Source: Eledone cirrhosa (lineage: Eukaryota). From it: a DNA stretch of 64,000 nucleotides. Position 1 is the first letter of the stretch, and each line of letters begins with the position of its first letter. A program made the position numbers and the translations under genes. The stretch covers positions 66,402,001 to 66,466,000 of the forward strand of contig OZ024747.1 in NCBI GenBank assembly GCA_964016885.1. The letters run 5' to 3'. The notes under the pieces are model-generated. The model saw nothing but the letters and a program-made list of their open reading frames with translations. It was not told the DNA's origin and ran no database searches. Positions 4,841-52,353 of the stretch are shown in pieces.

Positions 4841-4993
4841 TCATTATTTCTGAAGACGGCGTATATATGAGTTAGGTATGTATATTTAATCTTGATAATT
4901 TGTATAATTTTGTATAATTTTGTACATAGATCTGTTAAATATGCATACCAATTATAACACATATATACCCTAGAAACGATCGTTAAATAGTGA
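4841..4993 (+). ncRNA. Type I hammerhead ribozyme motif, long helix II
   Basis: Helix I TCATTATTT/AAATAGTGA; core CTGAAGA (4850) ... GAAAC (4973); helix II base GTATATATG/CATATATAC; palindromic helix III ACGATCGT; GUU cleavage triplet. Confidence 0.75.
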
Positions 4994-6020
4994 ACTTTTT
5001 TTGTTTAATATAAGGAATTGTTTGTTCATTATTTGTTTAATATTTTATCTTGACTCTGTATACCGTTTATCTTTCACCGAAATTGGATTTTCATTACATC
5101 TCTTCTTTCCATGATATCCGGAATACATTGAGTTCTTCATACGGATTGGACACTACCGTAAACTCTTGGTAGATTTATCTACATATATATATATATATGT
5201 ATATATATATGTATATATATGTATATATGTATGTATATATATATATGTATGTATATATATATGTATATATATATGTATATATATGTATATATATATATAT
5301 GTATATATATATATATATATGTATATATATGTATATATATATATATATGCGGGGCCCAATCTACATGAAGAACTCAATGTGATCAGAATGACTTGTATTT
5401 TAATTTCACTGCCCCAACTTCTTATATTATGGAAAAAATATATGTGTCTGTATGTATATATATATATATATATTTGAAGGCCATTTCTCTGTGTGTGGGT
5501 GTATGTATGTGTATATGTGTGTGTGTGTGTATGTGTGTGCATGTGGATGTATGTATTGTGTGTGCGTGTGTGTGTATGTATGTGGGTATCTGGATGTATG
5601 CGTATGTGTATATATATATATATATATATGCGTGTGTGTGTGTGTGTGTATATATATGTGTGTGTATGTGTGTGTATATATATGTGTGTGTGTATGTTTG
5701 TATGTGTGTATGTATATATATATATATGTGTGTGTGTGTATGTATGTGTGGGGGTGTGTGTGTGTGTGTGTATATATATATATATATATATATATATATG
5801 TGTGTGTATATATATATATGTGTGTGTGTGTGTGTGTATGTATGTGTGTATCTGGATGTATGTGTATGTATATATATGTGTGTGTGTGTGTGTATATATA
5901 TATATATATATATATGTGTGTGTGTGTGTATGTGTATATATATATATGTGTGTGTGTGTATGTGTGTATGTATAAGTATGTGTGTGTGTATGTATGTGTG
6001 TATATGTATATATACACATT

Positions 6021-6631
6021 ATGTCAGGTCACCAGTTGGTGCTACTGGTAACATGTATCCCAGTATAACCTGTCTCATGGTCGGGTCGTTGGCGACTAAA
6101 CTGGCAACCCCACCAAGGTTTCTTGGTGAGGAGGGTGACTTTGGACATCCTGCAGGACTAAAAACAAAACCTGTCAAAGGGCATAGGAGCTCTTAAGAGT
6201 CAATGGCCATCCAAAATCACCGGGAGAGATGACCCCTAAGCCTTTGTCAAGGCAGAATTCTAGGAGAAGGAAAACTCTGATCTAACACCTGCAACCCTGA
6301 TGGTATCCAATGATGTTGACTTGTTCTACTTTTTGGTAAATATCATCTTGGTTAAGAGAGTGGGACTGGCTTTGTGCAGTGCCTTTGCTCACTATAAAAG
6401 CTTCACGGCACAGGCATTGCTTTATATCTGGAGATCTCTCTGCACTTGTTGTCACATGGTACCATGGGCCCAGCACTATGTGTCAGTAATTGTCACAAGT
6501 GTAGTGTTTGTACCAAAGTTTTTAAGTCGCTGGCTGGACTAAAAAGTCACACTCGTTCAGCGCATCGGTAAGGGTTCTCCTACGTGGATATAAAGTAGTG
6601 GCCGTACTCGAAAACGAGTTGGCAGCCACCA
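6021..6631 (+). mobile_element. ~600-bp non-autonomous retroelement (RTE-like ends, non-coding)
   Basis: Near-identical to 58460-59036 and diverged copies at 56595-57137 and 57907-58388. 3' hairpin CTCG-AAAA-CGAG followed by a microsatellite tail. Confidence 0.7.
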
Positions 6632-7022
6632 TATGTATATATATATATATATATATATATATATATATGTATATGTATATGTATGTATGTGTGGATGAAG
6701 GTATGTGTGTATATATAGGTGTAAGTGCACTAAATCCCTTTCTATCACGCTCCACTCTCCTACCCATCACAGGAAGATATGTGTATGTATATTGCTTCCA
6801 CCTCCTCACTGACCAGCAGCTGGCGATTGCTAAATCTGACCTTTATAAAATAACCCACACCCCAAATAACTTCTCATTCACTACCAGAAAGGGACACAGC
6901 AGTCAACCTGTTGTTGCTACCAAGATGAAAACTGCTATGAAATCCCACAATGAATTTTATACTTGAATTTTCAAGTCTCAAATTTTAACTCTTCGTATTA
7001 TTAATTTTTCTTAATATTAATC

Positions 7023-7070
7023 AACATTTGAAAAGATGGCTTTTGCAGACCCATCGAAACCGGTCATTTT
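7023..7070 (+). ncRNA. Hammerhead ribozyme motif, U3:A8 core variant
   Basis: TTGAAAA-GATGG...CCATC-GAAAC-CG-GTC; helix III ACCGGT palindrome; helix I weak (AACAT/ATTTT). Confidence 0.5.
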
Positions 7071-7629
7071 TTATACCCTTTATTATTTCCTTACCTTATA
7101 AAATTATGTTTTTTCACAAAAAAGTATTCTGTCTCTTATATATTCCATGTGCCATTACCAACCTCAATTTTCTCTATATATATATGTATATATATGTATA
7201 TATATATATATATATATGTATATATATGTATATGTATATATGTATATATATGTATATGTATTTATATACATATATATATGTTTATATATATGTATATATA
7301 TATATATGTGTATATATATGTATATATATATGTATATGTATATATACATATATATGTATATATATATATGTATATATATATGTATATGTATATATATATG
7401 TATATATATATATATATATATGTATATATATATATATATGTATATATATATGTATATGTATATATATATGTATATATATATGTATATATATATATATGTA
7501 TGTATGTATATATATATGTATGTATATATATATATATGTATATATAAATATATGTATATATATATATAAGCATATATATATGTATATATATGTATGTATA
7601 TATGTATATATATATGTATATATATAATA

Positions 7630-49210: not shown

Positions 49211-49336
49211 TTATAGAAGGAGCTTCTACAGGACTAGTACTGTTTCATTCAGATGAAATCTTCAGGAAGCCCCTGAGCTTCCTGAAGATTTCATCTGAAT
49301 GAAACAGTACTAGTCCTGTAGAAGCTCCTTCTATAA
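49211..49336. repeat. Perfect 60-bp-arm palindrome with HHR-like core
   Basis: Arms 49211-49270/49277-49336. CTGAAGA (49282)...GAAAC (49301)...GTC (49315). Confidence 0.85.
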
Positions 49337-50185
49337 TATATATATATATATATATGTATATATATGTATATATATGTATATATATATGTATATATATCCC
49401 ACCACTCACCTTATTACAACAATTCCGCCATTACATGCATATTGCTGTCATATGTATTATTTAGACCCGTGTCGTCAATAACGTTTTGAAAAAAAATAAT
49501 GGTTTGCATATGAGAAACCCTATAGTTTATATTGTTTACTGACAGGTTGAAGTGTTTAATGATGAGAATGATATTTTGATAATGTCTTTCTTGGATATAA
49601 TTATATAGATGTTCAGTATATATAAACAAATGACATACAGGATTAAATGTATGAGTAATTTGGGAGAAATAACTATTTACAGGGACAAACCTAGGGTTAG
49701 AACACAGGACCTTGTGATTGGAAAGCAAAATTATGAGAGTAACCACATGACTGAGGGGAAATGCATTGTGTGCATGTGTGTATATATTTCCGTGTGTAAA
49801 TTTTAAAGATTTGCACACACAGATACACACATATGTATGCATATATAATTATACATTCACACCGTATTATTATCGTTGATATTCCAGAACAATTGCTTAT
49901 TAACCAGAAAGAGATGGTAAGAACGCCATAGATAAATTAGTTCTTTCACTCAAATATTACCACATTGCTGTGTAGATGGTAGAGAAGATAGCCATCGCTA
50001 TTTAGTATCGGAATAAAGTTATAGAGGAATACAAAATCAATATATTGATAAAGGTTGTGGCAATACTGTGGTTTTGATAAAATCTACGCACCAGAATCAT
50101 TTGAAATGCGGAGTTCGATACCTACAAGTCATTCTGTCTCTATGAGTTTAAATATCTAACTTGTTCCATTGTTAAGCTTGTTCTC

Positions 50186-52135
50186 TAGCAGCTTACGTTA
50201 ACATAACACTTTCAAAATTCAAATTTACTCTACGTTTCGTTAAACTATTGTTACTTTATATGCTGAAAATTACAGTTGATAAAAGAATATATATATATAT
50301 ATATATATATATATATATATATATATATATATATATATAATATAATGAAATGACAGGAGGCTGGATTTGTGTAAATCCTTGAAAGGTTTATTATACTATG
50401 ATCATTTCAATGACCGGGTTCCGTATGAATCCGGTGATATCATCAGGCGAACGGGCTCACCTGGAGTGCTTGGAAAAATAAATTCCCCTTCTTTCAGTAA
50501 ATGAAAATACTCGGCGTGGCTTAATTAGCCATGGGGCCCGGGGCGCGGCCGGTGTTTTAACCGCCAAATAGTACCTTTAAATTACAGAACAAATCGGAAC
50601 TATTATATATATCAACCTGAAACTGTTGAGCTTTAAATTTTCTAACCTCTTTAATATGGAATATTGATTATTAATTTATTAATTTTTTAACTTCATCCTA
50701 TAAGTCTAAACATTGTAACACACTGACCCCCAATATATTCACCTCTGCTAAGATGCGAGTCCCTGTGAAAATTTTGTCGCGCCACTCCTGGCCCGACTGT
50801 GGTGTGACATTAATATCGACCTTCCTTCCTCTCTCTTTCTATCTTCCTTCTTGTAGCTATCAACCATTACTCTTTTACTTCTCTAAGCTAAATTTTAAAG
50901 TTCCAACTTTCTGTCGGACTGTTGGGTGGGTTTTAATGGCGGCGCGACCAGCTCCCTGGCGAACGAGCTCACCTGGAGTGCTTGGAAAAATAAATTTCCC
51001 CTTCTTTCAGTAAATGAAAATACTCGGCGTGGCTTAATTCGCCATGGGGCCCGGGGCGCGGCCGTTGTTTTAACCGCCAAATAGTACCTTTAAATTACAG
51101 AACAAATCGGAACTATTATATAATCAATTGTTAAACTGTTGAACTTTAAATTTTCTAACCTCTTTAATATTGAATATTGATTATTAAATTTTTTTAACTT
51201 CATCCTAGAAGTCTAAACACTGTAAAACACTGACTCCCAATATATTCATCTCCGCTAAGATGCGGGTCCATGTGAAAATTTTCTCGCGCCACTCCTGGCT
51301 TGACTGTGGTCTGACATTAATATCGACCTTTCTTCCTCTTCCTTTCTATCTTCCTTCTTGTAGCCATCAACCCTTACTTTTCTACTTCTCTCTTCCCTTC
51401 CTTCTCTCCTCTCCTCCCGCAGACTTATCTTCCTTCCCCCTCTTGCTTGCCTATATCTGACCAGTAGTAGTTACCTTCCTCTTTTAGCTGACATTAACCC
51501 TGACTTCTCTTCTTCTTTCTTCCCCCTTCTTCTCCTTCCTTTCTTTCTTTCTTTTACCTTGTGTCATGGGATCGACGTTAACCTATGCTCCCATCTCTTT
51601 CTGTTTTCGTTCATCTGACCGGTAGTAGCATACTATAACATTTAGCCACGTCACTCCAGGGCGACCGGCTGAGGTTGAAGGAACAGAATAGCGGTCGCCC
51701 TCGGGTCTCGATTTTCAGCCCCATGGATTTTACCTATTACATTCACGTATTATATTTCGAATACCTGATGATATCACCGGATTCATACGGAACCCGGTCA
51801 TTGAAATGATCATAGTATAATAAACCTTTCAAGGATTTACACAAATCCAGCCTCCTGTCATTTCATTATAATATTTAACTCCGTAATAGCACCACCAACT
51901 ACAAAAACAAAGACGGTTGAACTGCTTTATGTTGAGTACTCTCTATATTATTGCATTACGATTGACCATACGGAATAGACCAGCTCTATACAGTGGTGAA
52001 CCTCAAACCTGAATAAATATATATATATATATATTCTTTTATCAACTGTAATTTTCAGCATATAAAGTAACAATAGTTTAACGAAACGTAGAGTAAATTT
52101 GAATTTTGAAAGTGTTATGTTAACGTAAGCTGCTA
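50186..52135. mobile_element. Nested fold-back elements with internal 512-bp-period duplication
   Basis: Outer IR 50186-50288/52033-52135; inner IR 50341-50447/51764-51870; direct repeat ~50446-50884/50958-51391. Confidence 0.85.
51761..51818 (+). ncRNA. Type I hammerhead ribozyme
   Basis: ATAC-CTGATGA-..ACCGG..CCGGT..-GAAA-TGATCA-TA-GTAT; helix III ATGATCAT palindrome. Confidence 0.65.
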
Positions 52136-52317
52136 TATATATATATATATATATATATATATATATATATATATATATATGTGTGTATGTGTGTGTGTGT
52201 GTGTGTGTGTGTGTGTGTGTGTGTGTGTGTGTAAAAGGTAAACAGAAATAAGAACACAATCGGTACAGTATATGGAAGGAATATATTAGGTTAACGCTTG
52301 AAATAGCAGGAAGAGGG

Positions 52318-52353
52318 TCTTAACGTTTCGGATGCAAGTCCTTCATCAGAAGA
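52318..52353 (-). ncRNA. Minimal type I hammerhead ribozyme
   Basis: Minus: TCTT-CTGATGA-A-GGA-CTTGCA-TCC-GAAAC-GTT-AAGA; loopless ACGT helix III, requires dimer. Confidence 0.75.

Follow-up and report, generated by a model that had tools for sequence, protein, structure and literature searches.

A 64,000-nt stretch of the Eledone cirrhosa genome (GenBank assembly GCA_964016885.1, contig OZ024747.1, positions 66,402,001 to 66,466,000; hereafter the window, whose own coordinates are used below) carries a dense population of type I hammerhead ribozyme (HHR) motifs. We consider it highly probable that these motifs belong to the 3′ ends of many families of Penelope-like elements (PLE) and retrozymes, where they sit just upstream of (TA)n tracts, and that their self-complementary helix III lets two copies cut as a double hammerhead. 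Each core of such a structure combines the CUGANGA, helix II and GAAA of one copy with the cleavage site of the other, and applied to the motifs described here, this strand swap would make both helices I intermolecular as well. Two identical copies within one transcript would swap strands and cut, and since helix III appears too unstable alone, cleavage would be confined to tandem RNA, releasing unit-length RNA for retrotransposition. Because each helix III would pair antiparallel with its own copy, its sequence must be self-complementary; palindromes could then diverge through compensatory changes with G-U intermediates, leaving families with different palindromes just as they differ in helices I and II. 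Given that the symmetry of the homodimer demands palindromy, no further function is needed to explain it, and helices I and III would together give rise to family specificity as a side effect.

The motifs were detected with a type I HHR descriptor consisting of the core, helix II, GAAA, an unconstrained helix III, UH and helix I. Stricter early descriptors gave 5 and 13 matches and overlooked motifs whose helix II has a mismatched basal pair or a long arm, both of which are tolerated by the final version. Since the descriptor was loosened with the window candidates already in view, a genome sample of 134 evenly spaced 10-kb stretches on contigs C1-C12 (1.34 Mb of the 3.0-Gb assembly) serves as the independent test. 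The window contains 26 matches, 25 of which fall within 4840-52353, and 18 of these have a helix III that is a perfect palindrome from A15.1 to U16.1. By comparison, 100 local dinucleotide shuffles gave 3.1 matches (at most 8) and 0.04 palindromic ones (at most 1). Under stricter helix scores there were 12 matches (9 palindromic) against 0.24 (0.01) in shuffles, and the reversed and the complemented window, used as decoys, gave 2 matches each, none palindromic. The matches at 32596 and 50269 belong to no family and are probably due to chance; the credible copies within 4840-52353 number 23 and form 17 families, 13 of them perfectly palindromic. The type I core and three helices stand in type I order and the matches far exceed those in shuffles: the window motifs are type I hammerhead motifs and not chance. 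The observation of about 20 hammerheads in 48 kb, made in an earlier note on this sequence that called for a descriptor search against shuffled sequence, is thus borne out, shuffled rates being far lower in both the window and the genome sample. The description of the motifs as unrelated in that note was overstated, as a tandem triplet of 592-bp units, inverted duplicates and families represented more than once are found among the copies, and two ACTAGT families align across the HHR (72% over 54 nt, E 1e-4). Repeats within the window were taken from a masked self-BLAST, as (TA)n swamped the unmasked repeat search.

The motifs are abundant far beyond the window. In the genome sample the descriptor found 317 matches against 101 in shuffled sequence, and 102 perfect palindromes against 1.25, while a stringent class whose definition ignores helix III had 129 members against 5 in shuffles, with 9 of the 129 coming from two single-locus satellites. 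Palindromic motifs occur at 76 per Mb (bootstrap 56-98), which suggests about 230,000 copies if the sampled density holds genome-wide. At 18 in 64 kb, the density in the window is about 3.7-fold this value, and the 60 kb flanking it carry 10 motifs; the window is AT-rich, with a (TA)n content of 10.7% compared to 4.5% in the genome sample, and motif number correlates with TA tracts (rho 0.59). Exact patterns searched genome-wide gave 5,842 copies for family F20, 38,152 for F3, 18,085 for F2 and 40,463 for the ACTAGT families, in total 102,542, and their reversed controls gave 0, 0, 0, and 51, respectively. This exact count agrees with the large unannotated population of PLEs and ribozymes that had been proposed, and Rfam overlooks it, finding no hammerhead match in the window at gathering score. 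Among 150 listed of the 669 rows of an E-value run, which was dominated by microsatellite matches, the sole hammerhead row was HH9 at the 17434 motif (38.9 bits, gathering score 52); Rfam hammerhead models would seem to describe dimer-type variants poorly. Most genomic copies are solitary, 5′-truncated remnants that are probably inert. Among 162 sampled motifs, 12 have a same-strand neighbor of their own family within 4 kb and 66 have a same-strand HHR of another family within that distance. The base pair at the base of helix II in the 129 stringent matches is G.C in 47, A.T in 23, T.T in 20, C.A in 15 and A.G in 10, and it varies even within the ACTAGT family (T.T, C.G, C.A). In four sequencing runs of unrecorded kind, a paired helix II change was seen and no change was listed in ACTAGT.

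For a census of helix III, 46 families were admitted without regard to helix III itself. Nineteen have perfect palindromes, 10 are self-complementary with G-U pairs, 6 are of even length with mismatches, 6 are of odd length and 5 are long, so that the claim that nearly all are self-complementary is too strong for the genome as a whole. Folding was evaluated for 47 of 63 clusters, the remaining 16 being omitted as satellites, likely chance matches, mismatched singletons or long helices, and the energies are nearest-neighbor estimates on isolated helices that ignore tertiary contacts and proteins. For the 45 families whose helix III has the length needed for the test, the predicted energy of a monomer hairpin is always positive (+0.4 to +6.0 kcal/mol); the homoduplex energy lies below zero in 44 of 47, as anticipated for helix III of the dimer type. 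A short, self-complementary and monomer-unstable helix III is found in 29 of the 46 families; F2, F8 and the motif at 21309 are exceptions.

Natural variation of helix III argues further for a partner in a second copy. Of 28 distinct even-length helices, whose sequences are not fully independent, 25 have complementary bases at the two adjacent central positions (this figure replaces 38/39, which family admission had biased). Being neighbors, these bases are unable to pair with each other in a hairpin, and compensation between them therefore needs an intermolecular partner. By hand count, the center of helix III in the first 100 of 4,363 F20 copies is AGCT in 42, AATT in 33, AGTT in 22, another sequence in 3, and never the mispairing AACT; in an F20 tree built without helix III, AGCT is nested in AGTT and sister to AATT, with GATT copies outside. 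Similarly, the first 100 of the 38,152 F3 copies comprise 50 with ATATATAT, 47 with ATATGTAT, 3 others and none with ATACATAT (hand count). We read both series as the drift of a helix between two copies, with G-U pairs as intermediates of compensatory change, and the AATT/AGTT/AGCT series, at adjacent bases that a monomer cannot pair, is an addition to the published model of palindrome and dimer. The core covaries too: among 143 self-complementary matches, C3-G8 occurs 117 times, U3-A8 23 times and U3-G8 3 times, and C3-A8 does not occur.

The position and surroundings of the motifs point to PLEs as their hosts. A (TA)n tract lies within 250 nt downstream of 147 of 175 motifs and upstream of 61, compared to 18% of random positions. 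The fragment of an open reading frame (ORF) at 8750-9421 corresponds to a young element with 63,143 first-look candidates, whose 150 scored copies are 97-100% identical, many with open frames of 821 aa; 27 of 30 endonuclease loci are followed downstream, in the same sense and mostly at a distance of about 1 kb, by an HHR of family F5 with helix III ATGCGCAT. Full-length F5 loci are ordered as an inverted truncated copy, an HHR, the 821-aa ORF and a second HHR, and F20 loci elsewhere have the same architecture, with an 832-aa ORF flanked by HHRs. Two same-sense HHR copies per element were found in F5, F20, F16, F18 and F4 among the window families examined. The 821-aa and 832-aa frames are each a single ORF in which a reverse transcriptase (RT) is followed by a C-terminal GIY-YIG endonuclease, the catalytic YRDD of the RT and the endonuclease motifs having been read from the sequence; both carry DKT, a CxCX5C linker, CxxC and CxH without CCHH, together with RWT and RWR, and their HHR-to-HHR spacing is 3.7 and 4.2 kb. 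The 8750-9421 fragment has a weak Pfam match to GIY-YIG, and the full-length ORFs have no match in Pfam or PDB. By motif description, the F5 and F20 parents would be Hydra-type PLEs, and these HHR-flanked ORFs together with the (TA)n placement uphold the PLE origin suggested earlier. Naiad elements, considered for their TA targeting, were ruled out by the C-terminal endonuclease and the presence of HHRs. Within the window, five motifs have a PLE coding remnant upstream (4840, 7662, 13552, 19023, and 22716). The 17434 motif (F16) lies in a 465-bp tandem unit and the motifs at 9785-10969 in a 592-bp unit, the former a retrozyme and the latter retrozyme-like; an F16 locus elsewhere holds 17 HHRs at 465-bp spacing and no ORF of 250 aa. 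No RNA data set was listed as containing the 465-bp unit, a result that has no bearing on its expression. Retrozymes in this genome repeat the HHR every 420-590 bp, and such non-coding tandem units, each carrying a single type I HHR, fit non-LTR (long terminal repeat) retrozymes by their sequence organization.

Several observations weigh against cleavage as a double hammerhead at PLE 3′ ends. The helix III of F2, in 18,085 copies, reads AGAACT or AGGACT, none of the first 100 copies is palindromic, and its predicted duplex is weak (+1.4 and -1.7 kcal/mol). PLE coding remnants occur in sense within 2 kb upstream of 17 of 184 motifs against 14, 13, and 10 at three control positions, and as this is barely above the controls, the link to PLEs through ORFs holds for some families only, the others leaning on TA position and inverted structure. 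Copy ends do not pile up at the predicted cut in any of the 18 families examined. Moreover, in the accessible portions of the published reports, the in vitro dimer activity of such motifs is low (PMC4209133) and no cutting was seen in 8 of 9 dimers of Xenopus retrozymes (bioRxiv 10.64898/2026.07.22.740005). The abundance of F2, the low activity in vitro and genomic ends without the imprint of a cut, together with the 17 of 46 admitted families that are non-palindromic or have a long helix, would be expected if the motifs worked chiefly as protein-assisted monomers, or served a structural or packaging role, with a palindrome that is inherited and unneeded for cutting. However, compensation at adjacent central bases calls for an intermolecular partner and the catalytic core covaries in the way cleavage requires, and we regard this explanation as improbable. 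That the motifs are chance matches in AT-rich and repeat-rich DNA has next to no chance of being correct: the loosest descriptor has a false rate of about one-third genome-wide and two single-locus satellites did produce spurious clusters, but the excess of palindromic matches over shuffles (18 against 0.04 in the window, 102 against 1.25 in the genome sample) refutes it, and genome-wide exact counts run to thousands where reversed controls reach only 0 to 51.

The earlier note went further than homodimer symmetry, proposing that the palindrome is a family-specific pairing code by which ribozymes dimerise efficiently only with their own family. A preference for the own family is indeed predicted, as the summed heteroduplex penalty relative to homodimers is below 3 kcal/mol in only 16 of 1081 family pairs, but the palindrome is not supported as its determinant. 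The discrimination by helix I is no weaker (median 10.7 kcal/mol, vs. 7.8 for helix III), the penalty falling below 2 kcal/mol in 75 pairs for helix III, 59 for helix I and 12 for both, and the predicted preference is therefore independent of the palindrome. The same palindromes recur in different families: 26 family pairs have an identical helix III, 21 of which are still more than 2 kcal/mol apart through helix I, ACAATTGT recurs in six clusters, related families mostly retain the same palindrome, and F2 with its 18,085 copies has none. It might nevertheless be supposed that the palindrome was selected as a code preventing co-resident families from cutting or hijacking one another's RNA. Families do crowd the same (TA)n sites, where the HHR of another family is found on the same strand near 66 of 162 motifs and one of the own family near 12; F5 has a helix I compatible with those of F3 and F21 and a different helix III, with penalties of 6.3 and 9.3 kcal/mol, and an AATT-AGCT duplex is predicted at -2.2 kcal/mol, compared to -6.4 and -11.1 for the homoduplexes. 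On the contrary, colliding palindromes exceed chance (21 pairs among 19 eight-base families against 2.7 under a uniform null, an excess inflated by kinship and singleton admission), and in the unbiased set 19 palindromic families share 15 sequences. AATT is retained among copies that are only 80% similar, AGTT as the intermediate pairs more favorably with each of its neighbors than with another AGTT, and helix I alone excludes 1022 of the 1081 pairs at 2 kcal/mol. A selected code of this kind is therefore unlikely in our judgment, and similarly doubtful is a selected self-recognition system built from the swapped strands of helix III and helix I among PLE families that share (TA)n targets and read-through transcripts. 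If it were true, a switch from AATT to AGCT, or from ATATATAT to ATGCGCAT, would separate a new lineage from its relatives during RNA processing.

The individual copies illustrate the range of these families. The F6 HHR at 4840..4994 (+), with helix III ACGATCGT, a 116-nt helix II arm and C.A at the base of helix II, belongs to a family with 9 copies in 8 loci, and an endonuclease remnant of that family lies at 1121-1627 (+); a diverged second F6 copy, also with ACGATCGT, is found at 13552..13704 (-), with a Hydra-type endonuclease remnant upstream at 16293..16802 (-). The motif at 7023..7070 (+) has a U3-A8 core, helix III ACCGGT and a weak helix I, and has no second copy in the genome sample. 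At 7662..7732 (-), the F5 HHR with ATGCGCAT marks the 3′ end of a young Hydra-type PLE, whose 5′-truncated ORF at 8750..9421 (-) covers the GIY-YIG region and is 98.7% identical to the intact 821-aa ORF. The retrozyme-like 592-bp tandem repeat occupies 9554..11126 (-), with HHRs at 9785-9874, 10377-10466, and 10969-11058 that share a U3-A8 core and helix III ACTACGTAGT, and the F16 HHR at 17434..17478 (+), with helix III ACTAGT, represents the 465-bp retrozyme unit that elsewhere forms tandem and inverted arrays. A Hydra-type endonuclease remnant at 18003..18587 (+) lies 436 bp upstream of the HHR at 19023..19141 (+), which has helix III ACAATTGT and a 92-nt helix II arm. The HHR at 21309..21387 (+) may fold as a monomer. 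Ten of the 11 palindromes listed in the earlier note lie inside a descriptor match; the remaining one, ACATGT at 21362, had been misassigned, being instead the start of the long, 18-nt helix III of this motif, closed by a 7-bp helix I, and a duplicate of the motif at about 20821 reads ACATAT in its place.

Further downstream, the F2 HHR at 22716..22760 (-), with the non-palindromic helix III AGAACT, has RT and endonuclease remnants of a PLE (23231..24869, -) 474 bp upstream, whose CX2-5CxxC linker suggests the Neptune/Nematis type. A degenerate HHR at 30170..30212 (-; limits approximate, core 30206), which has a weak helix I and stands outside the 23 credible copies, belongs to a family with mostly AGAACT, further copies of which have cores at 41038 (-) and 41398 (+). 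The F20 copy at 32051..32097 (+) has a C4 core and helix III ACAGTTGT, the G-U state of the AATT/AGTT/AGCT series. Minimal F23 HHRs with helix III ACGT occur at 39041..39076 (-), where the core is U3-G8, and at 52318..52353 (-), and F4, whose helix III is ACTAGT and whose helix II has U.U at its base, is found at 40403..40445 (-) and in tandem arrays elsewhere. F34 at 42846..42901 (-) has helix III ATATATAT, and F10 at 44312..44393 (+) has ACTAATTAGT. An inverted pair at 44714..45005 consists of F7 units at 44787-44822 (-) and 44897-44932 (+), with a U3-A8 core and helix III ACCGGT. The HHR at 47604..47720 (+) has a C4 core, helix III ACGATCGT and a weak helix I; beside it, an inverted duplication at 47859-48983 holds a Hydra-type endonuclease remnant (48125-48556, -), and its downstream end has GAAACGTT without a descriptor match. 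A second inverted pair (49216..49331) belongs to F8, with a near-palindromic helix III of 16 nt. The F37 HHR at 51761..51818 (+), with helix III ATGATCAT, has an inverted truncated copy at 50345..50447 (-) that lacks the 5′ strand of helix I, and between these inverted ends, at 50446-51391, lie two diverged copies of a GC-richer repeat of roughly 500 bp.

The window also holds repeats of other kinds. Long RT frames of the LINE (long interspersed nuclear element) type at 25617-27110 (-) and 27709-29900 (-) match Pfam RVT_1 (E 5.6e-32 and 3.7e-30), each flanked by (TA)n tracts, and a 3′ fragment of another LINE ORF without a Pfam match lies at 11361-11800 (-) beside a long (TA)n tract. A broken non-LTR element with RT extends across several frames at 59400-62786 (+), and its C-terminal region resembles what we take to be a restriction-like endonuclease. 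About ten copies of a 170-350 bp repeat resembling a short interspersed nuclear element (SINE) are present in both orientations (35982-36263, 42255-42427, 43071-43466, 53383-54380, and 55956-56240), and a satellite-like block at 37277-38290 has units of about 19 bp and 29 bp.

Metazoan PLE HHRs with a palindromic helix III, a dimer model, the U3-A8 variant and many families per genome have already been reported (PMC4209133, Cervera and de la Peña 2014). As far as the available text of that report goes, the motifs described here resemble them in being type I HHRs in PLE terminal repeats with palindromic 15.2-16.2 and loop 3 and a U3-A8 variant, and in their opposite-strand pairs 100-700 bp apart, many consensus families and mostly solitary truncated copies. 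In contrast, about 2,000-9,000 copies per genome are given there, compared to more than 100,000 by exact count here, our helix III is often longer (6-10 nt) with helix II arms up to 116 nt, and the highly conserved G10.1-C11.1 corresponds here to G-C in 47 of 129 (U.U 20, C.A 15). The short-stem-III PLE hammerheads of Lunse, Weinberg and Breaker (RNA Biol 14:1499), as summarized in the accessible parts of PMC6765202 and PMC6466107, are likewise associated with PLEs and have a short palindromic stem III, dimer cleavage and a need for tandem copies; the short palindromic stem III and the PLE association are shared by the motifs here. The parent elements resemble the Hydra clade of PLEs, as far as it is described in the available text of Craig et al. 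(2021; PMC8557442), in the C-terminal GIY-YIG, DKT, CxCX5C, CxxC/CxH, lack of CCHH, (TA)n insertion and HHRs, and differ in having RW(T/R) rather than RWK and an inter-HHR unit of about 3.7-4.2 kb rather than below 3 kb; outside cnidarians the clade has few families in that text, whereas it is young and abundant here. Non-LTR retrozymes, which have dimer-dependent cleavage and a proposed PLE origin in the consulted portions of PMC7229834 and bioRxiv 10.64898/2026.07.22.740005, likewise consist of non-coding tandem repeats with a single type I HHR per unit, and one axolotl family shares U.U at the base of helix II. Unlike the quoted 150-450 bp, units here measure 420-590 bp, and the 126,247 axolotl motifs fall into two groups compared to dozens of families here. 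In the giant squid genome, 235 Rfam hammerheads have been recorded (PMC6962438). Our literature search, which did not extend to Lunse et al., found no paper on heterodimer specificity or on cephalopod PLE hammerheads.

The motif class and the model of palindrome and dimer are thus already published, and what is new here is the scale and the natural covariation. With more than 100,000 copies, at least 46 families and young intact Hydra-type parents, the genome of E. cirrhosa is a natural test panel, in which the non-palindromic F2 is a useful exception. The F20 subfamilies, having the same helices I and II and an AATT, AGTT or AGCT center, provide sequence evidence for intermolecular pairing and are ready-made constructs for asking whether and how PLE hammerheads cut.

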